A stretch of DNA of 43,757 bases from the IMG/VR virus record IMGVR_UViG_3300032213_001560; one strand, 5' to 3'. The notes beneath the pieces are model-generated. The model was not told the origin of the DNA and ran no database searches. It worked only from the letters and a program-made list of their open reading frames with translations. How positions within the stretch are numbered: position 1 is the first letter of the stretch; each line of letters starts with the position of its first letter. Positions 1,957-31,549 of the stretch are shown here, one piece after another. The position numbers and the translations under genes are program-made. Source of the stretch: a virus.

Positions 1957-2208
1957 TTATGCTACTAACTTTATTTTGTATGTGTCGTTGTCTTTTATTG
2001 GGAACCAATAGCAATCGTTGTAAACGTAAATATCCTTTCCGCTGATTGCCTTGATTGTTGCGATGGCTAGAATGTCTTTATTATAGCCAGTGTAAAAAAT
2101 GATTTTATCCCCTGTATTAAACCGTGTTTCATTGTCTTTGGGCAGTTTAGCAAGATGCCTTGTGGCATCCGTACAAAGCGGTTTTTCGTCTAAATCCCAA
2201 ATATCCAT
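1957..2208 (-). CDS. hypothetical protein (83 aa)
   Basis: ORF track. Packed in the leftward operon. No motif recognised. Confidence 0.6.
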   Translation of the reverse strand: MDIWDLDEKPLCTDATRHLAKLPKDNETRFNTGDKIIFYTGYNKDILAIATIKAISGKDIYVYNDCYWFPIKDNDTYKIKLVA

Positions 2209-2211
2209 TGT

Positions 2212-2547
2212 TTACACTCCTGCCGCTGTTTGGTTATCACAAAACACAATGCCGTTATTGCCTACTTTATCACCAGCAGTCCCACGGATTGCGGCGCGTA
2301 ATTCATCAATGTTTTCGATTGTGTCATCTAACTTTGCAGCAATGGTGAATTGCACCATATAAGATGCCTTGGCAATGCGGATAGAATCGCCGCAAATAAT
2401 GCCTATCCGATTATCAGATTGCACCATTATCCGGCCTTCTGTTGGATTAGGATAAACAATAAAATCCTGCTCCTTACGCATACCAGTGAATTTTGCATTG
2501 AAGCTGATAGTGCCCATACAATTAGTGTGAATGTTTGTGACTTTCAT
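2212..2547 (-). CDS. hypothetical protein (111 aa)
   Basis: ORF track. Its stop lies 3 nt upstream of the next ATG. No motif recognised. Confidence 0.7.
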   Translation of the reverse strand: MKVTNIHTNCMGTISFNAKFTGMRKEQDFIVYPNPTEGRIMVQSDNRIGIICGDSIRIAKASYMVQFTIAAKLDDTIENIDELRAAIRGTAGDKVGNNGIVFCDNQTAAGV

Positions 2548-2576
2548 ATCTTTAACCCTTTCATGGTTGTTTGGTT

Positions 2577-2801
2577 TTAGGCGTTTAAGTATTCTTGAAT
2601 TGCTTTGTATGTATGCTTGATGCCGAGGCGCTTAGAAGTCAGTTGGAAAGCAGGGCTATTAATATTAACAGCTTTGATATTGTCTAAAGCAACCTTCAAA
2701 GCTTTTTCAATTAATCCTTTTGCCGATTCCACTGGCAAATAAGGGTAAGAATCAATAAATGCTTGTGAGTATGTGGCGGCGTATGTGTCTTTGTTTGTCA
2801 T
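2577..2801 (-). CDS. hypothetical protein (74 aa), first gene of the leftward early operon
   Basis: ORF track. AAGGGGA SD-like sequence upstream. Downstream of the TTGACT-17-TATTAT promoter. Confidence 0.7.
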   Translation of the reverse strand: MTNKDTYAATYSQAFIDSYPYLPVESAKGLIEKALKVALDNIKAVNINSPAFQLTSKRLGIKHTYKAIQEYLNA

Positions 2802-2824
2802 GGCAGTTAATCCCCTTTCAAAGA

Positions 2825-2843
2825 ATTGCGCTTCATTGCGCTT
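2825..2843. repeat. Direct 9-mer repeat ATTGCGCTT x2 (10-bp period) in the leader of the leftward operon
   Basis: attgcgctt at 2825..2833 and 2835..2843, read directly. It lies between the predicted leftward promoter and the SD of ORF 2577..2801. Confidence 0.85.
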
Positions 2844-2851
2844 GTATTGTC

Positions 2852-2880
2852 ATAATATAGAAAGCATTATTATAAGTCAA
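2852..2880 (-). promoter_or_regulatory. sigma70-type promoter candidate, leftward (TTGACT-17-TATTAT)
   Basis: Reverse complement of 2875..2880 is TTGACT. A 17-nt spacer follows, and the reverse complement of 2852..2857 is TATTAT. It lies about 50 nt upstream of ATG 2801. Confidence 0.45.
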
Positions 2881-2963
2881 TAGACATTATGATGATAAAT
2901 GTAACTTTCCAGAAAAAATCGTGCAACCATTTGAATTATAAAGGCGTTTAGACTCATCTACAG

Positions 2964-2974
2964 CTCGAACACTG
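2964..2974 (-). promoter_or_regulatory. CAGTGTTCGAG 11-mer, inverted copy (candidate operator site)
   Basis: ctcgaacactg at 2964..2974 is the reverse complement of the 11-mer found at 3012 and 3168. Confidence 0.6.
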
Positions 2975-3011
2975 CAAAATGTTGAGAGATTACAAATGGA
3001 TAAGGGTAAAA

Positions 3012-3022
3012 CAGTGTTCGAG
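3012..3022 (+). promoter_or_regulatory. CAGTGTTCGAG 11-mer, direct copy (candidate operator site)
   Basis: Exact 11-mer at 3012..3022. Confidence 0.6.
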
Positions 3023-3076
3023 TCGGGGTAAAGTTACAAACCTTTTATTAGAATTTACTATACGCGGAAAACCTAT

Positions 3077-3135
3077 ACTCATCTCTAATTATGCATTATA
3101 ACTATATATAACAATAACTTATTAGAGAGATGAGT
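3077..3135. repeat. Imperfect AT-rich palindrome (ACTCATCTCTAAT ... ATTAGAGAGATGAGT)
   Basis: Left arm 3077..3089 and right arm 3121..3135. They form 9 contiguous pairs (actcatctc/gagatgagt) plus taat/atta after a 2-nt bulge. The spacer is about 31 nt and almost pure A/T. Confidence 0.7.
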
Positions 3136-3137
3136 TG

Positions 3138-3173
3138 TGTTTTGACAGTGCTTTGACAGTGTTTTGACAGTGT
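3138..3173 (+). repeat. Three tandem 11-bp repeats, each containing TTGACA (TTTGACAGTG at 3141, 3152, 3163)
   Basis: Read directly: tttgacagtg c tttgacagtg t tttgacagtg t. The period is 11 bp, about one helical turn. Confidence 0.9.
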
Positions 3174-3178
3174 TCGAG
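3168..3178 (+). promoter_or_regulatory. CAGTGTTCGAG 11-mer, direct copy overlapping the last tandem repeat (candidate operator site)
   Basis: Exact 11-mer at 3168..3178, 8 nt upstream of the -35 of the rightward promoter. Confidence 0.6.
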
Positions 3179-3185
3179 TTTAACT

Positions 3186-3214
3186 TTGCGATAAGGTACT
3201 GAATTTGTTACAAT
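3186..3214 (+). promoter_or_regulatory. sigma70-type extended -10 promoter candidate, rightward (TTGCGA-17-TGtTACAAT), placed for a leaderless transcript
   Basis: TTGCGA at 3186..3191, 17-nt spacer, TG at 3206..3207, TACAAT at 3209..3214. Only 6 nt separate the -10 from ATG 3221, and there is no SD. Confidence 0.45.
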
Positions 3215-3220
3215 GGCTTT

Positions 3221-3565
3221 ATGACGTATAAAACCGTATTAGACAAAACCACTGGCGAGCTGAAAAAGGTTCGAGATGGCGAAACATTGCCGCAATCCCC
3301 TGCAAAGGCACCACCGCCAATCGATATTACAGACAAGGCTGCATTGCGTGAGCTGGCAATGAAAGAGCTTGTGGCTATCATTCAGGCAAATGCTAGTGAT
3401 ATAAAGGCCGTGACTGCAATCAAAGAGCTATTAGACAGGATTGACGGCAGGCCTCACCAGTCAATTGATATGAACGCACAAGTTAAGCTGCGTTATGAGC
3501 CGTTAGTTATACGACTAGCTAACCCAGAACCACTAGTAATAGATAACGAAACACAAGAGCCATAA
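3221..3565 (+). CDS. small DNA-binding protein, terminase small subunit candidate (114 aa)
   Basis: ORF track. Located upstream of terL. The C-terminal region IKELLDRIDGRPHQS resembles the LLDRxxGKP motif I recall from small terminases. A regulator role cannot be excluded. Confidence 0.4.
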   Translation: MTYKTVLDKTTGELKKVRDGETLPQSPAKAPPPIDITDKAALRELAMKELVAIIQANASDIKAVTAIKELLDRIDGRPHQSIDMNAQVKLRYEPLVIRLANPEPLVIDNETQEP

Positions 3566-3659
3566 ACACAAGATATGGTAGTATTGGATTATAAGGATAA
3601 TTTGCCACTATTTCTTCCATAATAAACGATATACGATAATTATACAGTAAGGTATTGAT

Positions 3660-3767
3660 ATGCTTCAAATTTTCCTCTTGATGACGATAGTGCTGCTGGC
3701 TGTACAGGTTCCAGACTTGGTATGGTTAGCAGTGTGTAGCGTATGGCTGCTAGCTATGGCGCTGTAA
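3660..3767 (+). CDS. hypothetical hydrophobic peptide (35 aa)
   Basis: Manual translation: MLQIFLLMTIVLLAVQVPDLVWLAVCSVWLLAMAL. No convincing SD. Confidence 0.25.
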   Translation: MLQIFLLMTIVLLAVQVPDLVWLAVCSVWLLAMAL

Positions 3768-3798
3768 TGTATAGGCATTATGGTAGGGGCGCTGAAAC

Positions 3799-3857
3799 GG
3801 AGGGGGGGGTATGACGGGGGTGTTGAGTCTGGTATATACCCCCTCTCCCAATTTTTT
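3799..3857 (+). terminator. G-tract/C-tract stem-loop followed by T6 (intrinsic terminator candidate or packaging-region structure)
   Basis: ggaggggggggtat (3799..3812) pairs with ataccccctctcc (3836..3848) to give about 11 bp including G-U pairs, with a 23-nt loop. It is followed by caa plus tttttt (3852..3857). Confidence 0.4.
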
Positions 3858-3883
3858 ACAAAAAACCGATTTTCTGCTAACTA
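3855..3883 (+). promoter_or_regulatory. weak sigma70-type promoter candidate for terL (TTTACA-17-TAACTA)
   Basis: TTTACA at 3855..3860, 17-nt spacer, TAACTA at 3878..3883. The terL ATG lies 11 nt after the -10 and has no SD. Confidence 0.3.
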
Positions 3884-3893
3884 ACTGATAAAT

Positions 3894-5372
3894 ATGGAAA
3901 TTCTCTTAAACCCGCGTCAAATGGAGGTGTTGTCTAGCAAGGCGACCGAGATCCTGTATGGCGGAGCTGCTGGTGGTGGAAAATCGTATTTAATCAGGTC
4001 GTTAGCCATAGCGTTGTGTTATGACATTGCTGGCTTGCAGGTGTATTTGTTCCGTAGGACGTTCCCTGACTTGATGAGCAACCACATGAACGGGTACATG
4101 AGTTTTCCTGAAATGCTTGGCCCTATGATTGAGAAGGGGCAGGTTAAGATCCGTGAGGCCGAGATTATCTTTAGCAATGGTAGCAAGATCCATTTGTGTC
4201 ATTGCCAGCACGAGAAGGACGTAACCAAGTATCTAGGTGCGGAAATTCATGTGTTGCTGATGGATGAGCTTACTTCGTTTAGCGAGTATATCTATCGGTT
4301 TTTGCGTAACCGTTTGCGCCTTGGCGGGTTGCCTGTGCCGGATGCGTGGAAGTCAAAAGTTCCATTAATTGTGGCTGGGAGTAACCCCGGAGGTATTGGT
4401 CATGCGTGGGTAAAGCGGAGTTTTCTTGATAGTGCGGCGGCGTATGATGTGGTTCCCCAATCTGCTTCAGAGGGCGGGATGATGCGGCAATTTATCCCTG
4501 CGCGGTTGACGGATAACCCTACGTTGTTGAAGAATGACCCCGGCTATGCAGATAGGTTATGCGGTTTGGGTAGCGATGACTTGGTGAGGGCGATGCGCGA
4601 TGGAGATTGGAACATCGTAGCGGGGGCTGCGTTTGAGCAGTTAAACAGGGATAAACATTGTATCAGGCCGTTTGAGATTCCGCATTGGTGGACGCGGTTT
4701 ACAAGTTTAGACTGGGGTTCAAGTAAGCCGTATGCGATGGGGTGGTTTGCGGTGGCTGATGACGCGGTACACCTAGCTAAGACTGAGCGTTGGCCTGCGG
4801 TGAATATCGGTAAGGGTAGTATCATCATGTACCGTGAACTGTATGGCTGGAATGGTAAACCGGATGAGGGTGCGCGTGAGGAGTCGTGGGAGGTTGCCAA
4901 GAAAGTTGCGGCTATGGAGGGGGGTGATGAAAAGATAGCGTACCGTATCGGGGATTCGGCAATGTGGGCAAAGCATGATGGGCCTAGTATTGCCGAGAGG
5001 TTTATGGATGCACTTGTTCGTGAGGGTACAGATACGCCGAGCATGGAACAGTCACGCAAAGACAGGGCGGCTAACTATCTTGAGATTCGCAATCGATTTT
5101 CTAATTCGGATGGCGAGAAGGCAGGGTTTTATATTTTTGATACCTGCACGCATTTCTGGCGCACCATGCCAGACTTGCAGCTAGATGAACGCCAACCGGA
5201 GAAGGGATGGGATACATCGCAAGAAGACCATATAGCCGATATGGTAGGGTATGCGCTGGTGTCGCGGCCTACGATTATGGATAAACGCACCTATAACCGT
5301 CAGCAATATGATGATGCGCAGGACAAGGCTAGGGCTGCTCATTTGGGGTCTGCTAACGTGGGCAGATACTAG
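3894..5372 (+). CDS. terL: terminase large subunit
   Basis: 492-aa ORF. Walker A YGGAAGGGKSY, Walker B-like VLLMDELT, and a C-terminal nuclease-type region. The antisense ORFs inside it are spurious. Confidence 0.9.
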   Translation: MEILLNPRQMEVLSSKATEILYGGAAGGGKSYLIRSLAIALCYDIAGLQVYLFRRTFPDLMSNHMNGYMSFPEMLGPMIEKGQVKIREAEIIFSNGSKIHLCHCQHEKDVTKYLGAEIHVLLMDELTSFSEYIYRFLRNRLRLGGLPVPDAWKSKVPLIVAGSNPGGIGHAWVKRSFLDSAAAYDVVPQSASEGGMMRQFIPARLTDNPTLLKNDPGYADRLCGLGSDDLVRAMRDGDWNIVAGAAFEQLNRDKHCIRPFEIPHWWTRFTSLDWGSSKPYAMGWFAVADDAVHLAKTERWPAVNIGKGSIIMYRELYGWNGKPDEGAREESWEVAKKVAAMEGGDEKIAYRIGDSAMWAKHDGPSIAERFMDALVREGTDTPSMEQSRKDRAANYLEIRNRFSNSDGEKAGFYIFDTCTHFWRTMPDLQLDERQPEKGWDTSQEDHIADMVGYALVSRPTIMDKRTYNRQQYDDAQDKARAAHLGSANVGRY

Positions 5373-5443
5373 ATGTAGTAAATAATGCTTGACTCATACC
5401 AGATTTATTGTTTTTATGTAAAGGAACGATAAGTGGAGTTGAG

Positions 5444-5983
5444 ATGAGCAGGTACTTAGAGCTTTTAGAGCTAATAGACAAATACAAGCCGCAATCTCTT
5501 GTCGAGATCGGCGTGTGGAATGGCGCCAATGCTATCCGCATGATTAATAGGGCAAAGCAGCATCATGCAGATGTAACCTATACAGGTTATGATCTGTTTG
5601 AAGAAGCCAGCGCCGATACAGACTCCAAAGAGTTTAACGTTAAATCCCATAACCATATGAATGCAGTCGCGGCTTATATCCGTTCTGAAACGGGTGTGAC
5701 TCCTGTACTTGTTAAGGGTGATACTAATGTAACGTTGCCGACTAAGACTATTGCCGACTTTGTGTTTCTGGATGGTGGGCATAGCATTGAAACTATTACC
5801 AATGATTACAGCAAGGTGGGCTTGAGCAAAGTTGTTGTGCTGGATGATTACTACACCAATGGCCCAAATACAGAAAAATACGGATGTAACAAGGTAGTCG
5901 CCAATCTTAAAAACATAACCATCATGCCCACCAAAGATCCTGTTAAGGGCGGTGGGTTTACTCAGCTAGTGGTGGTGGCATGA
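5444..5983 (+). CDS. class I SAM-dependent methyltransferase (sugar O-methyltransferase-like, 179 aa)
   Basis: SLVEIGVWNGANAIRMI (SAM-binding motif region) and DFVFLDGGHS are typical of TylF/Methyltransf_24-like enzymes. Start moved to ATG 5444 (GTGGAG 5 nt upstream), in frame with track start 5408. Confidence 0.7.
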   Translation: MSRYLELLELIDKYKPQSLVEIGVWNGANAIRMINRAKQHHADVTYTGYDLFEEASADTDSKEFNVKSHNHMNAVAAYIRSETGVTPVLVKGDTNVTLPTKTIADFVFLDGGHSIETITNDYSKVGLSKVVVLDDYYTNGPNTEKYGCNKVVANLKNITIMPTKDPVKGGGFTQLVVVA

Positions 5984-6228
5984 TTATATCAATCCTTGCA
6001 GTTTTTCTTGGTTTGTTTATTGGGTTGCCTTGCGGGATATGGATTAAAGGCGTAGTAACTAAAATTTTATCTGATGGTTATTTTAATTTTTCTCCTGAAG
6101 AACGCAAAAAATTAATACAAGAACGTAAAGCAAACGTTTTATCAAATGTTTTGTTAATAAAAGCAATAGCTAGTGGCGGTGTGTTTTTTGTTGGGTTTAA
6201 ACTTTATCATATGTTGGTTCAGCAATGA
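5980..6228 (+). CDS. small two-TM membrane protein (82 aa)
   Basis: ATGA junctions at both ends. Hydrophobic spans IISILAVFLGLFIGLPCGIWI and LLIKAIASGGVFFVGFKLY. Confidence 0.7.
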   Translation: MIISILAVFLGLFIGLPCGIWIKGVVTKILSDGYFNFSPEERKKLIQERKANVLSNVLLIKAIASGGVFFVGFKLYHMLVQQ

Positions 6229-6635
6229 AAACCATCTGCGTGTCTGGCGGTTTTGATCCTATCCACATTGGCCATGTACGCATGATAGAAAAAGCAGCCG
6301 ACCTTGGCAACGTGGTTGTAATCCTTAACACCGATGAATGGCTTTTGCGTAAGAAAGGGTTCTTCGTAATGCCGTGGGAGCAGCGTAGGGAAATATTGCT
6401 GGCATTGCGCAGCGTGCATAATGTTATTATTGCGCGTGACGATGACGATACCGTATGCGAAACGCTCAAGTACCTAAAGCCGGATTACTTTGCTAATGGC
6501 GGCGATAGAACTACTAAGAATACACCAGAAAAGAAACTTTGTAAAGAATTAGGCATCACAATGCTTTGGGGTATGGGCGGCAAAAAGATTGCAAGCAGTA
6601 GTGAATTGGTTAAGAGGGCAAATGGCAAGATTTAA
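6225..6635 (+). CDS. HIGH-motif nucleotidyltransferase (cytidylyl/adenylyltransferase; RfaE/HldE domain II or TagD-like)
   Basis: The N-terminal ICVSGGFDPIHIGHVRMIE is the (T/H)xGH nucleotidyltransferase signature. ANGGDRT...SSSELV matches sugar-phosphate nucleotidyltransferases of the heptose/glycerol-phosphate type. Confidence 0.75.
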   Translation: MKTICVSGGFDPIHIGHVRMIEKAADLGNVVVILNTDEWLLRKKGFFVMPWEQRREILLALRSVHNVIIARDDDDTVCETLKYLKPDYFANGGDRTTKNTPEKKLCKELGITMLWGMGGKKIASSSELVKRANGKI

Positions 6636-6909
6636 AAAACGCGCATGGGGCTGGTATCTAGTTCTGCTTAATTTTCGGCAGTTCAAGGTAAAGCTGCTGC
6701 GTTTTAAACTTGGCGGTCAGTTATCAGTTCAATACCACAATCATAGAAGCGAGTTATGGCTATTCCTAACTGGAGTGCATAAGGGTAACTTTTGGCTGAT
6801 TAACAAGGGCGAGGTGCATACCTATTACGCTAATGGAGAGCGCCCGTTGGTGCTAGAAATCCAGTACGGCGAAAAGTGTAATGAATCTGACATTGTGAGG
6901 ATTCCATGA
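6622..6909 (+). CDS. cupin-domain protein, type II phosphomannose isomerase / GMP C-terminal domain-like (95 aa)
   Basis: RAWGWY..., KVKLLRFKLGGQLSVQYHNHRSELWLFLTG and EVHTY...LVLEIQYGEKCNESDIVRI follow the PMI/GMP cupin pattern (RPWG, KVK, LSLQxHxHRxEHW, IEVQxGxxxxEDDIxR). Start taken at ATG 6622. Confidence 0.7.
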   Translation: MARFKKRAWGWYLVLLNFRQFKVKLLRFKLGGQLSVQYHNHRSELWLFLTGVHKGNFWLINKGEVHTYYANGERPLVLEIQYGEKCNESDIVRIP

Positions 6910-7574
6910 TCGGCTGGTACACGGATAACGCTCTATCGCTTCAAGTGCTATCTGCTATACCCGACATTGAGCTAATGCACATAAAAGACTTTGCTCCTAT
7001 GCAAGATGTTCATGTTTTTTATGGTATCCACCGTGGCGCATCGCGTGCGATTCATCTGCTTAAATATTTTGGCATAGATTATTACTATATCGACAACGGC
7101 TATTTTGACGCTTTGTACGTCAATAGAAGCGGATTTAAGGGCATGGGAGGTAAATTCCGTGTTGTGAAGAATGATATGATTGAGCCTTGTGGATTTGAGG
7201 GTAGTTATAATTTTGATGTAAAGCGTACCATTATTATCCCTCCTACAGAATATACAGCAATGCACAATCTCACAACCCCTGAGGATTGGGGCAGGCTTGT
7301 TGGCCAACCTTTGGTAGATCATGGCGTTGAAATTCGCGTCAGAAAAAAAGATACCGAGATACCGCTTGAAGATGAATTGGCATGGTGTGACAGCGTCATA
7401 TCATTTAATTCAATGGTTATTATGCGTGCAATTGAAGCAGGAAAAGTTGTATGCGATACGCATGGCGTGCTACGCAATGATTATTTTTCGACATATAACA
7501 TTGAAGATATGAAAGCGTATTATGAGAAACGGCAGTTTACTATAGCGCAGCTTCGTGAGGGGGAATGGATATGA
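6906..7574 (+). CDS. hypothetical protein in the sugar island (222 aa)
   Basis: ATGA junction with the cupin ORF. No motif recognised. Context suggests a sugar-modifying or transfer role, but this is unproven. Confidence 0.6.
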   Translation: MIGWYTDNALSLQVLSAIPDIELMHIKDFAPMQDVHVFYGIHRGASRAIHLLKYFGIDYYYIDNGYFDALYVNRSGFKGMGGKFRVVKNDMIEPCGFEGSYNFDVKRTIIIPPTEYTAMHNLTTPEDWGRLVGQPLVDHGVEIRVRKKDTEIPLEDELAWCDSVISFNSMVIMRAIEAGKVVCDTHGVLRNDYFSTYNIEDMKAYYEKRQFTIAQLREGEWI

Positions 7575-8043
7575 AATTAAAGGAAAGATTTGAGCGTAAA
7601 TTTATCATTTCGGAAAGCGGGTGCTGGGAATGGACTGGCTCATTAAGCAGGCTTGGCTATGGCAATATACAGGTTAACAAGAAGAATATGAAAGCACACC
7701 GTGTAGCTTGGATGCTTTATAATGGGATATACCTAAAGCAGAAAATAATGATTTTCATGGAACGTGTGTTTTGCATAAATGTGATAATCGCAAATGCGTA
7801 AACCCAAAGCATTTATTTCTTGGTACTCATAAAGATAATATGAGTGATATGGTGAAAAAGGGTAGATACCCAAATAGGAACGGCAGCAATAACGGCAAAT
7901 CAAAGCTAAATGCTGATTCAGTTAGGCGTATTAGGGAAACAGCAAATCAATTAACAAGGGCAGAGGCTGCTAAGATTTTTAATGTGTGCCCAACAACAAT
8001 AAGCGCCGTTTTAAACAAAGTGGTGTGGGGGCACGTAGTATGA
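7565..8043 (+). pseudogene. HNH homing-endonuclease gene split by a 1-nt frameshift at a G-run (7724..7726)
   Basis: Frame A gives ...GCWEWTGS..GYG..KAHRVAWMLYNG. Frame B, open from 7723, continues DIPKAENNDFHGTCVLHKCDNRKCVNPKHLFLGTHKDNMSDM plus a C-terminal HTH-like region. One extra G in GGG would restore a single about-159-aa HNH_3-type ORF. Confidence 0.75.
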
Positions 8044-8813
8044 CATACACGGTTTATATCGGATGGGATTCTAGGGAGAAAATTTGTTATGACATTTGCC
8101 GAAAATCCATTGAACACAATACGCACTCAAAAGCAGAGATTATCCCATTATGCCACAAACAGCTTCGCAGGCAAGGATGGTTTACCCGCCCTTGGTTGAC
8201 AAACGCCTATGATGGTAACTGGACGGATCTTGTTGATGGCAGGCCATTTAGCACCGAGTTTTCGCATACTAGATTCCTTATCCCTTCGTTGATGGGCTAT
8301 AAGGGGTGGGCGCTGTTTATGGATTGCGACATGGTATGGGATGACAATATCAAAGACCTGTTTGCGCTCTGTGATGACAAATACGCCATAATGTGCGTAA
8401 AACATAACCATAAGCCACCAATGGGCGATAAAATGGATGGTGTGCCGCAGACAAACTATTACCGCAAGAACTGGTCTAGCTTTATGCTTATCAATTGTGG
8501 GCATCCAGCTAACAAAGATATTACGCCTGAGATGGTATCAACGCGCCCCGGTAGCTGGCTGCATAGTTTTGCGTGGCTGCAAGACTTCCAGATTGGCGCA
8601 TTGCCTACTACCTACAACTGGATTCAAGGCATATCACCAAGCAACGTCAAGCCAAAGGTTGTGCATTATACTGAGGGCGGGCCATGGTTTGACAATTACA
8701 AGGACGTTATGCACGCCGATACATGGTGGAAGTATTACAAACGCTGGCTTGAAGATGGTAACTATGAGCCTATTAAAGAAACGATTGATGTAGATTATGG
8801 GGTTTGGTTATGA
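8040..8813 (+). CDS. GT-A fold glycosyltransferase (family 8-like, DxD motif), 257 aa
   Basis: WALFMDCDMVWDDNIKDLF contains a DxD motif in the context typical of LPS-type retaining glycosyltransferases. Start taken at ATG 8040 (ATGA junction with the HNH ORF stop). Confidence 0.6.
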   Translation: MTYTVYIGWDSREKICYDICRKSIEHNTHSKAEIIPLCHKQLRRQGWFTRPWLTNAYDGNWTDLVDGRPFSTEFSHTRFLIPSLMGYKGWALFMDCDMVWDDNIKDLFALCDDKYAIMCVKHNHKPPMGDKMDGVPQTNYYRKNWSSFMLINCGHPANKDITPEMVSTRPGSWLHSFAWLQDFQIGALPTTYNWIQGISPSNVKPKVVHYTEGGPWFDNYKDVMHADTWWKYYKRWLEDGNYEPIKETIDVDYGVWL

Positions 8814-9787
8814 AAACCGCAATTGTAACAGGCGTGTGTGGTCAGGACGGTGCGTACTTAGCAAAGCACCTACTATCCCAAGGCTATAACGTTATTGGCT
8901 GGGCAAGACGCAATGCCTCACTTGCGGGGCTAAAATATCTTGGCGTTGAGTATCTTGTAAAGGTTGTTGATATTGATATTTGTGATCCGCACCACGTTGC
9001 AGACGAGATATATAAAACGCAGCCACAGGAATTATATAACCTTGCTGCACAATCGCATGTAGGGCTGTCGTTCAACAATGCAATGCAAACGTGTCAGGTA
9101 AACTACGGCGGCTACCTGAACATACTGCTTGCTGCTCGTAAGTTTGTACCAGCGTGCAAAATATATCAAGCCGGAACAAGCGAGATGTTTGGTTATTCAG
9201 CGGAAGGAATATGCAATGAACAAACTCCGTTTTCCCCTATGTCCCCGTATGCAATTTCGAAAGTCGCCGCGCATTGGGCAGGGGTCAATGCTCGATATGA
9301 AGCAGAACAATTTGTATGCAACGGTATTTTGTTCAATCACGAAAGTCCACTTAGGGGCAACGATTTTGTAACAAAGAAGATAACCAACTTTGTAAAGAAT
9401 TTTAGCGGTACAGAATGTTTAAAACTAGGCAATCTGGATGCCTCGCGTGATTGGGGCCATGCGCAGGACTATGTGATTGCCATGCACAAAATGCTGCAAG
9501 CACCTATGCCAGATGATTATGTTATTGCAACAGGTCACTCAACAACGGTTCGTAACTTTGTGCGTATGGCGTTTGAGGTTATTGGCAAAGGCATCATGTT
9601 TGAAGGCGAAGGCGTTAATGAATGTGGGTACGTCAACGGCGTGAAAGTAGTTGAAGTATCGCCAGAGTTCTACCGCCCTAATGATCTGAAATACTTAAGA
9701 GGTAGCGCTAAAAAAGCGCAGCAACGCCTTGATTGGACACCAACAATTACGATTGAACAGCTTGTAGGAGAAATGGTTACATCATGA
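8810..9787 (+). CDS. gmd: GDP-mannose 4,6-dehydratase
   Basis: TGVCGQDGAYLAKHLLSQGY (Rossmann GxxGxxG), YNLAAQSHVGLSF, YQAGTSEMFG, SPYAISKVAAHW (YxxxK) and CNGILFNHESPLRGNDFVTKKIT are collinear with bacterial GMD. ATG 8810 forms an ATGA junction. Confidence 0.9.
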   Translation: MKTAIVTGVCGQDGAYLAKHLLSQGYNVIGWARRNASLAGLKYLGVEYLVKVVDIDICDPHHVADEIYKTQPQELYNLAAQSHVGLSFNNAMQTCQVNYGGYLNILLAARKFVPACKIYQAGTSEMFGYSAEGICNEQTPFSPMSPYAISKVAAHWAGVNARYEAEQFVCNGILFNHESPLRGNDFVTKKITNFVKNFSGTECLKLGNLDASRDWGHAQDYVIAMHKMLQAPMPDDYVIATGHSTTVRNFVRMAFEVIGKGIMFEGEGVNECGYVNGVKVVEVSPEFYRPNDLKYLRGSAKKAQQRLDWTPTITIEQLVGEMVTS

Positions 9788-11439
9788 AAACAGCAGTTTG
9801 CACAACTTTTCCGTTAGATTATTACAATGTCTGCGCACGCGAAATGATTGTCACATTTGATAAGCATTGGCCTAAAGATGTGGATTTATTCATTGCATTG
9901 GACAAGGTAAGCAAAGAAGAATTGGCATTTTTACATCAGGATATTGGTGATATTCTCAAATCTGGGCGCGAGTTCTTTATATCAAATCAATGGACGGATG
10001 AAAAAGAGGCGTTTTATAAGCGCAATCAGGACTCACCTGATGTTAGCTACCGTTTCCATGTATGCAAGTTTGCGCACAAGGTATTTGCGCTAAAGGGCGT
10101 TGCTGACCATTGCCGCCAATTAGATTATACGGACATTATTTGGTTGGATGCTGATGTTATTACGAAGGCTGATTATGTGCCGGAAGATATGGGGGCAAAT
10201 GTTACAAAATTAGAAATATATGACGCCGCAACATTACAACGCATTGACGCTCCACATAGCGAATGCTCATTTATTCAATTTAGCCTTGAAGGTAAGGGCG
10301 GAGAAATTATTGACAAAATGCACAATTGCTATGTCACTGATGAAGTGCTTATGCTTGCTGGCTGGACAGATTGCGATGTGTTCGACCATGTAGCAAAAAA
10401 TTATTGCGTTTTGAATTTGTCAGAAGGCATAAAGGGATGGCATGTGTTCCCAGAATCAAAACTAGGCAAATACATGGAGCACCGCAAAGGGAACCGAAAG
10501 CATGTGGCTAAAACACAAAATATCATGCAGCCAAACGAAATACAGCGCCCTATTGTAGCGGATACCATGACTATTAAAACCATGAACTGCATTCCGCATG
10601 AACAGATCATTGCAAATATTAAAGAAAACCTTAAACAAATTAAAAAATGGGTAGAATACGTTAAACCGCACGATGAAACCGTGGTTATTTGCAGCGCGGG
10701 CGAAAGCTTGTCCTATTGTGATGTTAAGAAATGGGCGGATAAAGGTACAAAGATTGTTACGGTAAAACATGCCATTGATCGCTTGAAAGCATGGGGAATT
10801 AAGCCTTGGGCGTGTGTATTGCTAGACCCAAGACAGCATGTTGAGAAATTTATTAACACACCAGACAAGGATGTTATCTATTTTGTTGCTTCTATGGTTG
10901 ATCCGTCTGTTGTTAAGACGTTGTTAGATAACAATTGTATTGTTATTGGCTATCACGCAATGGTTGGCGCAGGCGAAGAAAAAATACTAGACAAAGGCAC
11001 TATGCTTGTTTCTGGCGGCAGCGCTACAGCCACTCGCTGCCTTGGCGTTCTGCATGAGTGCCTTGGGTTTAGCGACATCCATTGTTATGGTTACGACCTT
11101 TGCTACTTCACCAAGCCTGACATGAATAAGCGCGATGATGCTGGAAATCTCAAGTATATGGAAATTACTTTGGCTGCGAAAACATGGGGCGGAAAGCTAC
11201 AGCAGCGCACGTTTTGGACAGAAGGGCAGTTCTTGGCACAGGCGAAAGAACTGCATGATTTGTATAAAACCGAACAAGGGTTTAATATGGTACTTCATGG
11301 GAACGGTATTCCATCGTGGCAAAGAGCTTGCTTTGAGCAGTATAAGGCATGGGTAGATCAGTTTAATTCTAAAATAGACCAAATCAAACAAAACAGCGTA
11401 ACGCTACAAGAGTGGGAAAATGGAATTAGAGCAAAATGA
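9784..11439 (+). CDS. two-domain transferase: N-terminal DxD nucleotide-sugar transferase-like domain fused to a DUF115/MptE-like (Maf-type) domain, 551 aa
   Basis: The N-terminal half has DIIWLDADVITKAD (DxD). The C-terminal half has VVICSAGESLSY...VTVKHAIDRLKAWGIKPWACVLLDP...SGGSATATRCLGVLHECLGFSDIHCYGYDL, which matches the DUF115 pattern as I recall it. Confidence 0.6.
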   Translation: MKTAVCTTFPLDYYNVCAREMIVTFDKHWPKDVDLFIALDKVSKEELAFLHQDIGDILKSGREFFISNQWTDEKEAFYKRNQDSPDVSYRFHVCKFAHKVFALKGVADHCRQLDYTDIIWLDADVITKADYVPEDMGANVTKLEIYDAATLQRIDAPHSECSFIQFSLEGKGGEIIDKMHNCYVTDEVLMLAGWTDCDVFDHVAKNYCVLNLSEGIKGWHVFPESKLGKYMEHRKGNRKHVAKTQNIMQPNEIQRPIVADTMTIKTMNCIPHEQIIANIKENLKQIKKWVEYVKPHDETVVICSAGESLSYCDVKKWADKGTKIVTVKHAIDRLKAWGIKPWACVLLDPRQHVEKFINTPDKDVIYFVASMVDPSVVKTLLDNNCIVIGYHAMVGAGEEKILDKGTMLVSGGSATATRCLGVLHECLGFSDIHCYGYDLCYFTKPDMNKRDDAGNLKYMEITLAAKTWGGKLQQRTFWTEGQFLAQAKELHDLYKTEQGFNMVLHGNGIPSWQRACFEQYKAWVDQFNSKIDQIKQNSVTLQEWENGIRAK

Positions 11440-13684
11440 GTCATATCCTGAAATTGAACAAATGGATGCTGAAGAAGCGCCACCACCGCTAGAACCAAAA
11501 GCTCCAGAAGATGTAAACCTTGCCGAAGAACTTTCGCAAGATGCTGAAGGAGCTAAGGAATTAACAAAGATTGCCAATGAGTGCGTCAAAGCATTTGAAG
11601 ATGACCTTGAATCTCGTAGCGATTGGGAGGAAATGCACACCACCTACCGCGAGATTTACTACCAGCGCGATATGCCGGAAACCCCGCCTTGGACGGGTTC
11701 TAGCGAAGAAAGCCTGCCAATTCTTTCTGAAGCTGTAGGCCAGTTCCAAAGCCGTTCTTATAAAGCGTTTTTCCCAAATCGTTATTTTATTGATTGCATC
11801 CCTGTAGGAAAAAGTTCCACAAATGCTCGCGAACGTGCCGAACGCATCTCCCGCCATATGTCCTATCAACTTGGTGTGCTTGACCGGACGTATAAAGCAA
11901 ATAAAAACCAGATGTTTATGGCCGCAGCCCTTGATGGCAGTGATTTTACCAAAACTTATTGGTCGCCTGTACGCAGACAAGTGGTTATTGAGCGTGTGCG
12001 TGCGGAAGATTTGGTCGTTCCTTACGGCGTTGGGCCACGCCGTTTAGAAGAAATTGAACGTAAAACGCAAATTAAATGGTGCAGCGTCAACGAAACACGC
12101 ATTTTAAAAGCCGCTGGATGGTATATTGACGAAGGTACGCCATATACGCAGCTTGGCGACCAAACATCAATGCAGCAAGCCGCAGATGAGGCTGAAGGGG
12201 TACAAAAAAGCAGTACTTACGACCAATCAGCAGGTCAATGCTGCATCCTTGAACAGCATACCTTGCTGGATTTAGATGATGATGGCATTGCAGAACCTTA
12301 TATTGTGTGGATTGACCGTCAAAGCAAGAAAATCCTGCGCATCCAGATTCGCTATGAAGTAGATAAAACAGGTTTACCGCTGAATAATAAAGAACCTGTT
12401 GAATATTTTACGCATTATCAGTTTTTACCTAACCCAAATGGGTTTTATGGCCTTGGTTTTGGCTTCTTGCTGGCAAAAATTAACCTTGCTGTTAATAAAC
12501 TTTCCCGCATGTTTATTGATGCCAACGAGCTTTCGGTTGTTGGAAATCTTACTTACCTGATTAGCGACCAGCTTGGGTTACCGGGTGATAGTTTTGAAAT
12601 GTCGCTTGGCAAAGGCATCAAAATCCCGCGCTCTGTGCAAGATATTAACGCGCACTTTAAGCAATTAAACTTTGCACCGCCTAGCCAGCAGACAATGCAG
12701 ATGATTGAGCAGTTGCGTACTGCTGCCTCCCGACTTAGTTCGGCAACTGACATTCTTTCTGGGCAGCCTGACAAGGTTTATCAGCCTGAAGCCATGCTTG
12801 CCATGATTGAACAGGGTTTGCAGCTTTTTAGCTCTGTTCAGGAGTTTTTGGGCGTTGCAATGGAAGATGAATTGCAAAAAGTCTACCGCCTAAATGCAAA
12901 ATACCTGCAAGAAGATGCTAACTTTGTGTTTGGCGATGACCAAATTACAGTGACACGCGAAGATTACAAAGACGACTTCCGCGTTATGCCAATTTTTGAT
13001 CCTAAGTATTCTACCCGTTCGCAGAAGCTTGCAAAAGCTAAAGCCGAGTATGAATTTGCTATTGGCAATCCACTAATGCAGCAAGATCAAGAATCTATCT
13101 ATCTTGTTTCTAAAAACGTGCTTGAATCGTTGGATGCAGAGGATATTGACGCAAAACTTAAAAAACCCGCGCCTCCTCCTGCACCAGCACGCATTGATGA
13201 CCAGAATCTTGAGAACGCATACTTCCTCATGCCGCCTGATAAAAGGCCATTGTTTGATGTATACCCAGATCAAGACCATTTACAGCACATTAGGAAAGTT
13301 GATGAGTTTATTGCGTTTATTGACGCCTCATCACCGCTTGAAGTGCCTAATTTACCAGGTGGCGACCCCGGTATTTCACAGTTAATTGCCACATTAAGCG
13401 GCGAACAAAAGAAAGAACTTGTTGCCAATCTGCTGCGTCATAGGTCGCTGCATATGGCGTTTATGTATGGTCAACTTAATGGGGTTATGGATGAGCAAGG
13501 ACAACCAATCACACCTAACAACGGTGGAGCAGGATCTGCTGGAGGGGTGGCAACGACACCGAGTGACAACCCTGATTTGGCGCAAATTATGTCAGGATTA
13601 CAATCCCTACTCGGCGCTTCTAGTATGCAAGCCGGAGGAACTGGGCAGGTATCAGGGGCAGGCGGAAATGATGGAAGTGCTTAA
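11420..13684 (+). CDS. portal protein (754 aa) with acidic N-terminal and Gly-rich C-terminal extensions
   Basis: Largest head-module ORF in the late operon, between terL and the scaffold/capsid genes. Assigned by size, position and general portal-like composition. No diagnostic motif verified. Confidence 0.7.
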   Translation: MELEQNESYPEIEQMDAEEAPPPLEPKAPEDVNLAEELSQDAEGAKELTKIANECVKAFEDDLESRSDWEEMHTTYREIYYQRDMPETPPWTGSSEESLPILSEAVGQFQSRSYKAFFPNRYFIDCIPVGKSSTNARERAERISRHMSYQLGVLDRTYKANKNQMFMAAALDGSDFTKTYWSPVRRQVVIERVRAEDLVVPYGVGPRRLEEIERKTQIKWCSVNETRILKAAGWYIDEGTPYTQLGDQTSMQQAADEAEGVQKSSTYDQSAGQCCILEQHTLLDLDDDGIAEPYIVWIDRQSKKILRIQIRYEVDKTGLPLNNKEPVEYFTHYQFLPNPNGFYGLGFGFLLAKINLAVNKLSRMFIDANELSVVGNLTYLISDQLGLPGDSFEMSLGKGIKIPRSVQDINAHFKQLNFAPPSQQTMQMIEQLRTAASRLSSATDILSGQPDKVYQPEAMLAMIEQGLQLFSSVQEFLGVAMEDELQKVYRLNAKYLQEDANFVFGDDQITVTREDYKDDFRVMPIFDPKYSTRSQKLAKAKAEYEFAIGNPLMQQDQESIYLVSKNVLESLDAEDIDAKLKKPAPPPAPARIDDQNLENAYFLMPPDKRPLFDVYPDQDHLQHIRKVDEFIAFIDASSPLEVPNLPGGDPGISQLIATLSGEQKKELVANLLRHRSLHMAFMYGQLNGVMDEQGQPITPNNGGAGSAGGVATTPSDNPDLAQIMSGLQSLLGASSMQAGGTGQVSGAGGNDGSA

Positions 13685-13711: not shown

Positions 13712-13837
13712 ATGGCTAAAAAGAAACCTTTTGAAAAATCCGCAGCAGATAAAAAATCTGATAAAAAGGGCGGCTACAAAGAAAATTCTAAAAAAGATAA
13801 AGCAGTAGATAAAAAGATGATGAAAAAAGGTAAATAG
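13712..13837 (+). CDS. Lys-rich basic peptide (41 aa, 17 Lys)
   Basis: Manual translation: MAKKKPFEKSAADKKSDKKGGYKENSKKDKAVDKKMMKKGK. AAGGAG lies 5 nt upstream of the ATG. Its TAG stop shares a base with the GTG start of the GNAT gene. Confidence 0.6.
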   Translation: MAKKKPFEKSAADKKSDKKGGYKENSKKDKAVDKKMMKKGK

Positions 13838-14304
13838 TGACTACTAAAGTTAGCTATAAGTTTGTCACAATAGACGAGCTTGAAGCTTGCGCTAATATCC
13901 ATGATTTACTGCATGAATACGCAGAAGAATCAGCAGTAAAAGGTTTGCCTTCCCCCAATGCCAAATCAGAATTGTACAAAGGACTGGAAAGCACTGGCGC
14001 ATTACAGGCGATTGGTGCGTTTATTGATAACGAACTAATTGGCTTTATACTCATTCTATCTCCTGTAATGGCGCATTACAGTGCGCTTGTTTGTGTGGTT
14101 GAAAGCTTTTTTGTTACAAAAAATAAAAGAAATACTGGTGCAGGCATAAAATTGTTGCACTATGCTGAGGATTTTGCAAAAAGCAAAGGCTCCCCCGGAT
14201 TGTTAGTAAGCGCACCTGTAAACGGCGTGCTATGCAACGTTTTGCCGCATATCGGCTATACAGAATCTAATAGGGTGTTTTTCAAAAGGCTTAAAGATGA
14301 GTAA
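13837..14304 (+). CDS. GNAT-family N-acetyltransferase (155 aa, GTG start)
   Basis: VVESFFVTKNKRNTGAGIKLLHYAEDFAKSKG fits GNAT motif A (R/Q-x-x-G-x-G/A followed by a helix). Confidence 0.7.
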   Translation: MTTKVSYKFVTIDELEACANIHDLLHEYAEESAVKGLPSPNAKSELYKGLESTGALQAIGAFIDNELIGFILILSPVMAHYSALVCVVESFFVTKNKRNTGAGIKLLHYAEDFAKSKGSPGLLVSAPVNGVLCNVLPHIGYTESNRVFFKRLKDE

Positions 14305-14747: not shown

Positions 14748-15173
14748 ATGACAGGGGCTACTAGCGCATTAACTACTGCTGCTGCTGTTATGTCAACTGT
14801 TAAGGCTGCGCAAGGTTTCCTAGATAAGCCAAAAGCCCCTAAGGTCGCCTCAATTGCACCTGCACAAGCTCCTGCATTTAATCCAGTTAAGCCCATGGCT
14901 TTAGCACGTCCAGAAGGTCTTGGTGAATATGCGAATTTTGACCAGAATCAGGAACGCTCTGCATTAGCTACTAAAGGTATAAATCAGGGTTTAGGCAAAG
15001 ACGAAAGCGCTTATTACAAGAATTTGGTTCAGAGAAGTTTGATTGGTGATGATAACAAACCAGCGGCAGATACGAACAGCTTACTTCCTGTGGAGAGCCA
15101 GTATTTCTCTCAGCAGGGCATGAATACGTCTGGAATTATGGATTTTCTTAAACAACTACAGGGAACGCAATGA
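14748..15173 (+). CDS. hypothetical head-module protein (141 aa)
   Basis: ORF track. Ala/Pro-rich N-terminal half. No motif recognised. Confidence 0.65.
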   Translation: MTGATSALTTAAAVMSTVKAAQGFLDKPKAPKVASIAPAQAPAFNPVKPMALARPEGLGEYANFDQNQERSALATKGINQGLGKDESAYYKNLVQRSLIGDDNKPAADTNSLLPVESQYFSQQGMNTSGIMDFLKQLQGTQ

Positions 15174-15475
15174 TAAGTTTTACACCGATATTTGATAGAG
15201 TTTTGATTAAGAGGCACGATTCGGCATTACAGAAAAAGACAGGAAAAGCGGGTTTAATATTACCTGAAACAGTTAGTGATAAATATAAGTCATCTATAGG
15301 TACGCTCGTCCAATGTGGTGCTGATTGCCATGACGATGTGCAGAATCTTCTTGGAAAGTCTGTTTTGTTTGCCCGTTATTCGGGTGACGAAATCAAACTA
15401 AATGACGAAGAATTTTTGCTTGCAACAGACCGTGATATTTTTGGAGGGATAGATGACTCAGAATCAAGAGAATAA
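15170..15475 (+). CDS. groES: GroES-like co-chaperonin (Cpn10 family, 101 aa)
   Basis: FTPIFDRVLIKR...KKTGKAGLILPETV...GTLVQCG...GKSVLFARYSGDEIKLNDEEFLLATDRDIFGGI is collinear with GroES (PLxDRVLVK, GIVLP, VVAVG, GDxVLFxKYxGTE, ILAxI). Confidence 0.8.
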   Translation: MISFTPIFDRVLIKRHDSALQKKTGKAGLILPETVSDKYKSSIGTLVQCGADCHDDVQNLLGKSVLFARYSGDEIKLNDEEFLLATDRDIFGGIDDSESRE

Positions 15476-18256: not shown

Positions 18257-18287
18257 GGGAGGGGATAAATACCCCTCCCACTTCTTT
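18257..18287 (+). terminator. stem-loop terminator/attenuator after the capsid gene
   Basis: gggagggg (18257..18264), ataaata loop, cccctccc (18272..18279): a perfect 8-bp GC-rich stem followed by acttcttt. Confidence 0.55.
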
Positions 18288-31463: not shown

Positions 31464-31549
31464 TCCTCATTTCCCTACTACTATCTGGCTGCACCGTATG
31501 CGCTAAGGGAGAGTGTCCGGTGTTTCCTACGAGTGCACCTCGGCAATGA
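31451..31549 (+). CDS. small lipoprotein (32 aa), outer-membrane spanin-like candidate
   Basis: Manual translation: MAKIILISLLLSGCTVCAKGECPVFPTSAPRQ, with lipobox LSGC. It overlaps the holin 3' end by 13 nt and converges on the TrpRS-like gene, with 23 nt of antisense overlap. Confidence 0.45.
   Translation: MAKIILISLLLSGCTVCAKGECPVFPTSAPRQ

Follow-up and report, generated by a model that had tools for sequence, protein, structure and literature searches.

Experimental proof that virions are glycosylated exists for very few phages, in essence only for mycobacteriophages. In the mycobacteriophages Che8 and Rita, phage-encoded glycosyltransferases (GTs) attach glycans covalently to capsid or tail proteins, according to Freeman et al. 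2023 as cited in PMC11256854, where glycosylation of the Che8 capsid is also cited. In the eukaryotic giant virus PBCV-1, a GDP-mannose 4,6-dehydratase (GMD) and the GT-GT-methyltransferase protein A064R build capsid glycans (PMC9614988). Here we describe an island of nine same-strand open reading frames (ORFs) lying between the large terminase gene (terL) and the portal gene of the virus record IMGVR_UViG_3300032213_001560, whose whole stretch of 43,757 nucleotides (nt) was analysed and is referred to below as the window. A first-pass annotation had read this island as a phage pathway that builds and transfers a possibly methylated 6-deoxyhexose. We propose that the island is a vertically inherited, late-operon module of glycan assembly that would glycosylate virion proteins, a proposal to which we give an even chance. 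Virus-encoded glycosylation is already known; what is new here is an ancestral glycan module between terL and portal, of which we found no description in the literature.

Like the mycobacteriophage systems, the island encodes its own GTs, and a like product is proposed. The mycobacteriophages, however, have actinobacterial hosts, the GT genes of Maravista are located near the 3' end of the genome and not between terL and portal, and that account reports no GMD, phosphomannose isomerase (PMI)-type cupin, HIGH-type nucleotidyltransferase (NT), Maf-like or KpsC-like components. The likeness between the island and PBCV-1 is at the family level, and comprises a viral GMD (A118R in PBCV-1, which also reduces its product to GDP-D-rhamnose), retaining GT-A domains with a DxD motif, an S-adenosylmethionine (SAM)-dependent methyltransferase (MT; that of PBCV-1 methylates a terminal 6-deoxyhexose), multi-domain fusions and soluble cytoplasmic enzymes, whereas PBCV-1 has N-linked glycans, dispersed genes and no Maf-like or KpsC-like domains, and the island lies in what appears to be a packaging operon (PMC9614988).

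Layout and inheritance of the island

The window carries a 123-bp exact direct terminal repeat (bases 1–123 equal bases 43635–43757), leaving 43,634 unique bp, and because of this repeat it was taken as a complete phage genome, either circularly permuted or with direct terminal repeats. The island, its boundaries and the first strong terminator-like element downstream of terL are as follows (aa, amino acids; AF2, AlphaFold2).

3894–5372, + strand: terL, large terminase of 492 aa, upstream boundary of the island (tblastn; Terminase_6N on an identical contig)
5444–5983, + strand: SAM-dependent MT, O-methyltransferase-like, 179 aa (PF13578)
5980–6228, + strand: 82-aa protein with two hydrophobic segments (Kyte-Doolittle)
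6225–6635, + strand: putative HIGH-motif cytidylyltransferase-like sugar-phosphate NT, 136 aa (PF01467)
6622–6909, + strand: type II PMI-type cupin, 95 aa (PF01050)
6906–7574, + strand: 222-aa putative glycosyltransferase with a predicted KpsC/KpsS/WbbB-like (GT107/GT99) fold (AF2 and Foldseek)
7565–8043, + strand: HNH homing endonuclease in two ORFs, 7565–7801 and 7771–8043, owing to a 1-nt frameshift close to 7724 (HNH_3, PHROGs)
8040–8813, + strand: GT8-like, putatively retaining GT-A glycosyltransferase, 257 aa (sub-threshold PF01501, phrog_28018, motifs)
8810–9787, + strand: GMD homolog, 325 aa (PF16363, full length)
9784–10518, + strand: N-terminal half of the 551-aa protein (ORF 9784–11439), predicted second DxD GT-A (GT8/GT6-like) domain (AF2 and Foldseek)
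10546–11439, + strand: C-terminal half of the 551-aa protein, MptE-like/DUF115 (Maf-type) domain (PF01973 and Foldseek)
11420–13684, + strand: portal, SU10_portal family, downstream boundary of the island (PF23899 on the identical contig)
18257–18279, + strand: strong intrinsic-terminator-like hairpin after the capsid gene, GGGAGGGG...CCCCTCCC stem of 8 pairs, 7 of them G-C

The coordinates and common strand of the ORFs were reproduced, together with the ATGA stop/start overlaps at 5980, 6225, 6906, 8040, 8810 and 9784, the 14-nt overlap at 6622–6635 and the 20-nt overlap with the portal start (11420–11439), and gene calls on the identical, independently assembled Logan contig gave the same ORF starts. 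The GC content of the island (0.40–0.46) was similar to that of the remaining genome. A terminator scan revealed no strong terminator between terL and the end of the capsid gene, the hairpin at 18257–18279 being the first such element. Since the counts of promoter-like and terminator-like matches were not above those of shuffled controls, we infer co-transcription of the island from its gene packing. The tight packing and the lack of a strong terminator before the end of the capsid gene bear out the earlier view that the island would form part of the late packaging/head gene string. The product of terL was 43–45% identical to annotated large terminases of Acinetobacter and Salmonella phages (tblastn), and in the nearest cultured relatives by terL this gene directly abuts the portal gene, in accordance with the earlier remark that the two are usually adjacent.

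Relatives (designated by L numbers where needed) were collected by a portal-based scan of IMG/VR, which yielded ten loci, by exact-protein look-ups and by a scan of bacterial and archaeal genomes. We found the island upstream of the portal gene in every related contig reaching that far, and between terL and portal wherever terL was present. The portals of the related contigs were 42–92% identical to that of the window. Because the same gene order and overlaps recurred in about 12 independent related contigs, the arrangement is not due to chance. The placement, which the first-pass annotation had called unusual, is kept clade-wide and marks a conserved core module rather than a peculiarity of this phage. 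That annotation had counted a common conserved module of known function in close relatives as a refutation of its reading; this applies in part, as the conservation was found but a known function was not.

Cultured phages reached a portal identity of at most 31%, megablast of the terL-to-portal stretch against 50,697 phage records gave no match, and tblastn with the 551-aa protein found only one weak match in cultured phages, to its N-terminal domain. This protein had 658 homologs, and among the matches listed the contigs were at most about 52 kb long. When 185,579 bacterial genomes were scanned with its profile, one locus was found, on a phage-like contig binned in a Myxococcales metagenome-assembled genome (MAG). 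Judged by these comparisons, the island-bearing lineage is a large uncultured clade with SU10-type portals; we call it uncultured because of the low portal identity to cultured phages and the lack of a cultured homolog of the full 551-aa protein.

We then compared the identity of each island protein to that of the window with portal identity, over 12 loci. Spearman's rho was 0.96 for the GT8-like protein, 0.90 for the MT, 0.88 for the 551-aa protein, 0.87 for GMD and 0.85 for the 222-aa protein, as compared with 0.19 for the NT. The cupin was absent in L002, L005, L006 and L016. Since the core tracks portal identity and the NT does not, and since the NT and the cupin are patchily distributed, the core of transferases, MT and GMD is, on this sequence evidence, ancestral and vertically inherited, with the supply genes more fluid. 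A recent insertion or moron was ruled out by the presence of the island in all recovered relatives and by the co-divergence of its core with the portal. The gain and loss of the NT and the cupin within the clade would suit a metabolic helper, whose supply arm boosts host pools of GDP-mannose or deoxy-sugars while the transferases act on a soluble or other small acceptor; marine viromes very commonly contain type II MPI genes standing alone, and discussions often treat these as auxiliary metabolic genes of carbon metabolism (PMC9602691). We regard such a role as scarcely probable, as the conserved, co-diverging part consists of transferases, MT and GMD and not of supply enzymes, and as four predicted transferase domains, with fusions among the domains, point to a defined acceptor on which assembly proceeds in order.

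In the most distant relatives (L008, L010 and L020; portals 42–45% identical), GMD was absent and the MT and the MptE-like domain made up one protein. In L010 and L020 a separate gene encoded the GT-A half of the 551-aa protein, and in L012 and L013 this half was duplicated. The MptE-like gene was always located directly upstream of the portal gene, including in L008, L010 and L020, and overlapped it in most relatives. These alternative fusions suggest that the MT, GT-A and Maf-like domains serve one process. On the Myxococcales MAG contig QZKR01000020.1 (L020:7374-8929), a radical-SAM/SPASM enzyme and an extra Methyltransf_23 protein replace GMD, NT and cupin; radical-SAM/SPASM enzymes usually act on peptides, which speaks for a protein acceptor.

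Eight genes of the nine-ORF pathway proposed earlier were retained. The ninth ORF (7565–8043), left unnamed at that time, proved to be a frameshifted HNH endonuclease gene: HNH_3 and several HNH PHROGs matched both halves, and a three-frame translation gave ...AHRVAWMLYNG / DIPKAE...HKCDNRKCVNPKHL spread over two frames. The frameshift falls at a GGG run (~7724), and the sequence was identical in the Logan assembly; a programmed frameshift, a site that resists sequencing or decay into a pseudogene could account for the split. The ORF has a 10-nt overlap with the 222-aa ORF and sits exactly at the junction of the 222-aa and GT8-like genes, with overlapping start and stop codons kept on both sides. 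The gene was absent from all relatives, including one with a 92% identical portal, whose flanking genes overlap directly. By these comparisons, the HNH ORF is a selfish insertion and not a member of the pathway. The 82-aa protein had the two hydrophobic segments reported earlier, with Kyte-Doolittle 19-residue means of 2.4 (residues 1–19) and 1.6 (residues 55–73); it showed no family match and no BLAST match in relatives, and L015 carried a small ORF in the equivalent position.

Predicted enzymes

Four transferase domains are predicted in the island, namely the KpsC/WbbB-like 222-aa protein, the GT8-like protein, and the GT-A and Maf/MptE-like halves of the 551-aa protein. Profile and structure searches upheld the earlier assignments of the MT, HIGH-type NT, PMI cupin, DxD transferase, GMD and 551-aa fusion, and all motifs quoted for them were present in the translations; the 222-aa ORF, which had been left unassigned, was modelled confidently with a KpsC/WbbB-like fold. 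None of the conserved island enzymes had transmembrane (TM) segments.

The AF2 model of the 222-aa protein had a pLDDT of 89.1 and a pTM of 0.84. Its top 13 Foldseek matches in the PDB were all retaining transferases of beta-Kdo (3-deoxy-D-manno-oct-2-ulosonic acid), namely KpsC, KrkA and WbbB (E 3e-6 to 4e-3; probability 0.98–1.00; query-normalised TM 0.34–0.56), and its BFVD matches included a protein of Caulobacter phage CcrColossus and "capsule polysaccharide biosynthesis" proteins of Tetraselmis virus. With these best fold matches, KpsC/KpsS (GT107), WbbB (GT99) and KrkA, the protein weakly shares an N-terminal (W/Y)G...G ... (E/I)D(N)G(F/Y) motif and a C-terminal GT-B-like motif, but it is about 100 residues shorter and forms a family of its own. 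This family, which Pfam lacks, had 678 representatives in a library of 1.84 billion proteins and was seen mostly on contigs that are phage-sized or phage-like. We found no Pfam match for the 222-aa protein, including Capsule_synth, and its family profile gave nothing usable against PDB sequences. One of 46 distant family members matched PF05159 (E 7e-4), the sequence links to Capsule_synth and DUF6716 being weak, and hhalign of the family against E. coli KpsC and KpsS aligned fragments only (probability 9–71%). Because these links are weak and the catalytic motifs of KpsC were not found, we describe the protein as KpsC-like in its modelled fold and not as a member of GT107.

The GT8-like protein matched PF01501 below threshold (E 6e-4, 19.9 bits against a cutoff of 24.3, profile positions 83–134 only) and phrog_28018 with an E value of 4e-65. 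Among 18 homologs, D95-x-D97 and H209-Y-x-x-G-x-P-W (G213, P215 and the following W) were near-invariant; we take the C-terminal motif of GT8 enzymes to be H-x-x-G-x-x-(K)PW-like. Homologs with 36–43% identity were present in Caulobacter, Pelagibacter, Synechococcus and Stenotrophomonas phages. For both this protein and the 551-aa protein, searches of PDB sequences gave nothing usable.

In the AF2 model of the 551-aa protein (pLDDT 88.8), the N-terminal half matched LARGE1, GlyE, COLGALT1, alpha-1,3-GalT and glycogenin in Foldseek (E 5e-9 to 1e-6), and W120, D122 and D124 were invariant in 45 homologs. It was not demonstrably a paralog of the GT8-like protein, hhalign of the two being not significant (probability 0.6%). 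The C-terminal half passed the Pfam threshold for PF01973 (69.3 bits against 34.6, residues 274–441) and matched the Maf structure 5mu5 in Foldseek (E 1.3e-7, 294 columns). Only the central catalytic domain of Maf, whose solved chain has 632 residues, was aligned, and the flanking Maf domains were absent; the phage domain is instead fused to GT-A or, in relatives, to the MT. The phage lacks nonulosonic-acid synthesis genes, and no flagellar genes were found in its genome. The single NCBIfam match of the MptE-like half was "flagellin modification protein PseD" (NF050051), at 18.9 bits against a cutoff of 670. According to these models, the 222-aa protein and the Maf-like half share folds with enzymes that use CMP-activated ulosonic acids. 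The MT matched PF13578 (Methyltransf_24) with 34.7 bits against a cutoff of 26.3, and the only PDB matches of its clade profile were weak (E 0.006–1) and all cation-dependent O-methyltransferases (YrrM, COMT and NovP).

As to sugar-nucleotide supply, the NT matched PF01467 (51 bits against a cutoff of 21; motif GGFDPIHIGH) and phrog_7878 (E 1e-22), its PDB matches being ECT, TagD and a Thermoplasma RfaE-like protein. Its best NCBIfam match was rfaE_dom_II (TIGR02199, HldC / RfaE domain II), with 64.5 bits, below the cutoff of 181.5. The cupin matched PF01050 (53.5 bits against 23.6), its metal-ligand motifs LSVQYHNHRSELW and GEVHTYYANGERPLVLEIQYG (QYHNHRSE, GEVH...N) being intact as read in the translation; a search of PDB sequences gave nothing usable. 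It also matched the C-terminal region of TIGR01479 GMP_PMI (profile positions 360–461, 38.6 bits against a cutoff of 373). In the bifunctional type II GDP-mannose pyrophosphorylase/PMI (GMP-PMI) enzymes of this family (ManC/AlgA/WbpW), a PMI-type cupin is likewise coupled to a nucleotidyltransferase near GDP-mannose-consuming enzymes, and the order is NT then cupin, as in the island. The nucleotidyltransferase of those enzymes is, however, the NTP_transferase (PF00483) guanylyltransferase domain, which was not matched here, the neighbouring NT having the unrelated HIGH-motif PF01467 fold.

The NT and the cupin, adjacent in the window, made up one fusion protein in L012 and in L013, as they did in 7,559 proteins from metagenomes (PF01467+PF01050 fusion loci L012:12912-13700, L026:6001-6756, L028:6001-6771 and L030:6001-6768). 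In one marine phage context the neighbours of the fusion are GMD, a KdsA-like gene and a DegT aminotransferase; in a second context it adjoins a UDPG/GDP-mannose dehydrogenase, and it also occurs on KB910544.1, a scaffold of an NCBI genome assembly with ordinary cellular genes. Very abundant in marine metagenomes, it appears to be uncharacterised. A phosphomannomutase (PMM)-like HAD gene was present in the islands of two clade members, L009 and L016. The KdsA-like gene, which follows the fusion in L012 and L026, is at most suggestive of CMP-Kdo as the donor for the 222-aa protein. It also prompted a Kdo-pathway reading, with the cupin as arabinose-5-phosphate isomerase and the NT as CMP-Kdo synthetase. 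This is less likely, because the cupin strongly matches the PMI profile and the fusion adjoins GDP-mannose-consuming enzymes; a further reason is that characterised HIGH-family NTs activate phospho-substrates. The NT may serve a manno-heptose version of the pathway or have a role in Kdo supply.

GMD matched PF16363 with 348.4 bits against 27 (residues 5–322 of 325) and TIGR01472 with 338 bits, below the equivalog cutoff of 415. Its 11 best PDB matches were all GMDs, the top one being 2z1m of Aquifex (310 bits), with 1rpn of P. aeruginosa at 258 bits. The motifs TGVCGQDG, GTSE, SPYAISK and NHESPLRG were present in the translation; the first three we take to be the GxxGxxG cofactor motif and the Thr/Glu...Tyr-xxx-Lys residues of short-chain dehydrogenase/reductase-type dehydratases. 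The enzyme appears divergent and may act on a related substrate such as GDP-manno-heptose. Pfam and PHROG scans of the larger ORFs of the complete genome revealed no reductase, epimerase or aminotransferase partner for it. The partner named as missing in the first-pass annotation is thus absent, but the incomplete chemistry that it suggested as one possibility has precedents in bifunctional GMDs, those of PBCV-1 and P. aeruginosa making GDP-D-rhamnose unaided (PMC9614988, PMC3584063). In the marine T4-like versions of the module, a DegT aminotransferase adjoins GMD.

Proposed pathway, acceptor and alternatives

In the pathway that we propose, the cupin would convert fructose-6-phosphate to mannose-6-phosphate, a host or phage mutase would form mannose-1-phosphate, and the NT, in place of the classical NTP_transferase domain of bifunctional GMP-PMI enzymes, would yield a nucleoside-diphosphate (NDP)-mannose, probably GDP-mannose, a manno-heptose analogue being possible. 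GMD would then produce a 4-keto-6-deoxy sugar, to be reduced by GMD itself, as in the bifunctional enzymes, or by a host enzyme. The host would provide a CMP-sugar, for example CMP-Kdo, for the two CMP-ulosonic-type transferases, hexose or 6-deoxyhexose would be attached by the two retaining GT-A enzymes, and the MT would cap the glycan. The targets would be structural proteins of the same gene string (capsid, decoration, portal-proximal or tail), resulting in glycosylated virions. Because there are four transferase domains, two of them with the folds of CMP-ulosonic-acid enzymes, the product is probably a methylated, 6-deoxyhexose-containing oligosaccharide; of the earlier proposal, the 6-deoxyhexose and the methylation are kept, and the single sugar is given up.

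Virion proteins are the most likely acceptor, followed by the host envelope and lastly DNA. The acceptor is also the least certain step of the proposal, as apt to fail as to hold. We prefer virion proteins because the module belongs to the packaging/head gene string, is strictly conserved there and co-diverges with it, because the Maf-like gene is always joined to the portal gene, because the nearest structural and NCBIfam matches of the Maf-like domain are flagellin-modification proteins, because the GT8-like gene lies in or next to head-tail genes in two other phage lineages, and because capsid glycosylation by virus-encoded enzymes has phage and giant-virus precedents. Characterised Maf-family transferases are flagellin O-glycosyltransferases, that is, they glycosylate protein. 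A 142-aa protein with 25% Ser+Thr is encoded just after the capsid gene (18300–18728), and a 267-aa protein of L016 (19111–19914) matched it three times in tandem; possibly it decorates the head and expands by repeats, and it is a candidate acceptor of the glycan. Other candidate acceptors are the major capsid protein (17337–18248), a 191-aa protein (16749–17324) and the portal.

Related gene clusters were found in other phages. GT8-like and 222-aa-like genes were adjacent in four unrelated phage groups, including Mosig, CcrColossus and marine T4-like contigs. Pelagibacter phage Mosig carries this pair and a GT-A homolog. In Caulobacter phage CcrColossus, the cluster directly follows a tail protein, precedes the lysis cassette and also holds genes annotated as sialyltransferase-like and GT9, and in the podovirus MW202512 a GT8-like gene and an FkbM methyltransferase are located inside the head-tail module. 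No homolog of the Maf-like half could be detected in the clusters of CcrColossus, Mosig or L012; gp126 of CcrColossus (annotated sialyltransferase-like), tried as its counterpart, gave no match. An unrelated 42.7-kb podovirus (L025, MW202713.1) has a sugar cluster at 2165–6581, immediately upstream of terL and portal, with genes annotated as TibC-type glycosyltransferase, methyltransferase and pyridoxal phosphate-dependent enzyme and an unannotated gene homologous to the GT-A half of the 551-aa protein, indicating that sugar clusters recur beside packaging genes.

Several points weigh against virion glycosylation or against parts of the pathway. In the T4-like phages, the cluster sits among replication and nucleotide-metabolism genes and not among structural genes. 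Some relatives lack the NT and the cupin, whose divergence does not follow that of the portal, and the best matches of the NT are heptose-1-phosphate adenylyltransferase and cytidylyltransferases, all far below equivalog cutoffs. The bifunctionality of GMD rests on precedent only. The catalytic motifs of KpsC, which we take to be the QxxxD nucleophile and the HP motif of the KpsC/WbbB literature, are not evident in the 222-aa protein. Ser/Thr-rich acceptor-like features were sought in the capsid and neighbouring structural proteins, with nothing decisive, and no cultured member of the clade is known from the megablast, tblastn and portal comparisons with cultured phages. Finally, the core of lipopolysaccharide (LPS) is likewise synthesised with GT8, GT9-like, Kdo-transferase-like and HldC-like enzymes.

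This last point suggests host-envelope remodelling, in which an LPS-core-like or capsule-linker-like glycolipid would be built, or host LPS decorated, during infection, possibly for blocking superinfection or for keeping progeny off debris. We consider this rather unlikely, even though the KpsC/WbbB-like fold, the GT8-like motifs and the HldC-like NT mirror LPS and capsule machinery, and even though the GT9 gene in the CcrColossus cluster, the KdsA-like gene in L012 and L026, the T4-like cluster outside the structural region and the small two-TM protein of the island all speak for it, as does the literature, in which phage genes for GMD, MPI and GTs are usually assigned to modification of the cell wall or LPS (PMC9602691). 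No integrase, lysogeny module or Gtr-type family was detected by Pfam and PHROG scans of the complete genome. The seroconverting phages known are temperate ones that work through membrane proteins of the Gtr type or O-acetylases, and with neither an integrase nor Gtr-type membrane proteins here, classical seroconversion is unlikely. The genes are packed by overlapping codons into the packaging/head string and, if expressed late, would leave little time for altered LPS to reach the surface. The conserved enzymes have no TM segments and the two-TM protein is not conserved, and strict conservation with portal co-divergence, across a clade probably spanning different hosts, fits a virion trait better.

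DNA hypermodification, in which the transferases would glycosylate phage DNA just before packaging and thereby evade restriction, would suit an island between the terminase and portal genes, but appears very unlikely. The phage systems of this kind, namely glucosyl-5-hydroxymethylcytosine (5hmC) in T4, arabinosyl-5-hydroxycytosine (5hoC) in RB69 and DLP3, and the TET-associated GTs, resemble the island in using phage GTs, some of them GT-A, with sugar-nucleotide genes and in acting late; PMC13326640 places group transfer to DNA late, before packaging. Phage GT-A enzymes with GT8-like or PBCV-1-A064R-like folds glycosylate 5hmC, and some of the genes for 5hmC-glycosylating GTs adjoin terminase genes (bioRxiv 10.1101/2023.12.21.572611), so that the fold by itself does not speak against DNA. 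The MT of the island also weakly matched a PHROG annotated as DNA methyltransferase. However, every known DNA glycosylation system needs an enzyme making a hydroxylated base (PMC13326640; bioRxiv 10.1101/2023.12.21.572611), and Pfam/PHROG scans of the larger ORFs of the complete genome detected no thymidylate-synthase homolog, dCMP or dUMP hydroxymethylase, C5-methyltransferase or TET/5mYOX. No hydroxylated base would therefore be at hand as an acceptor. The genome has a pol III beta-like gene and encodes a VapE-type protein, but a phage DNA polymerase was likewise not detected. DNA modification is represented by one gene only, that of an ordinary N6/N4 methylase at 36553–37659, far from the island. 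The PDB matches of the MT are O-methyltransferases, and we know of no DNA-acting precedent for Maf-like or KpsC-like folds. The clean assembly of the contig from ordinary shotgun data in two pipelines is a further, weak argument.

We therefore keep to virion proteins as the preferred acceptor. A bolder joint reading, which is unlikely to hold as a whole, is that the clade, probably with Gram-negative hosts, obligatorily O-glycosylates its own virion proteins, giving an LPS-core-like capsid coat. The first sugar on a structural protein would be placed by the Maf-like domain, from a CMP-activated ulosonic acid of the host (Kdo, for example), and the new KpsC-like transferase family and the two GT8-like enzymes would extend the glycan. 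The cap would be a methylated 6-deoxyhexose, supplied through a previously unrecognised route to NDP-mannose by a HIGH-type NT and a cupin, and the same GT8/KpsC-like pair would do likewise in Caulobacter, SAR11 and cyanobacterial phages.

Neighbouring genes and significance

Directly 3' of the portal gene, at 13837–14304, the window encodes a GNAT acetyltransferase with a homolog in none of the related contigs, and L016 has an FkbM methyltransferase in the same slot, which seems to hold variable modifying enzymes. A Cpn10/GroES-like co-chaperonin gene (15170–15475) lies within the head-assembly module and is kept in L015, L016 and L020. On the − strand, a 248-aa ORF (31527–32273) of this small phage genome matched the class I Trp/Tyr tRNA synthetase family PF00579 (E 2e-41) over profile positions 7–235 of 292 only, and is truncated.

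The island brings to light two abundant and uncharacterised enzyme groups, the KpsC-like 222-aa family (678 representatives) and the NT/PMI-cupin pair or fusion (>7,500 metagenomic proteins), the latter of which possibly takes the place of the classical GDP-mannose pyrophosphorylase as a non-orthologous enzyme. Since the cultured phages CcrColossus (with its relatives) and Mosig carry a partial module, the question is testable. If our proposal is true, a glycan kit held as part of the packaging/head core across hundreds of metagenomic phage genomes would be a lineage-defining trait, and would have consequences for how receptors are masked, for recognition by immune systems or grazers and for the stability of the particle.

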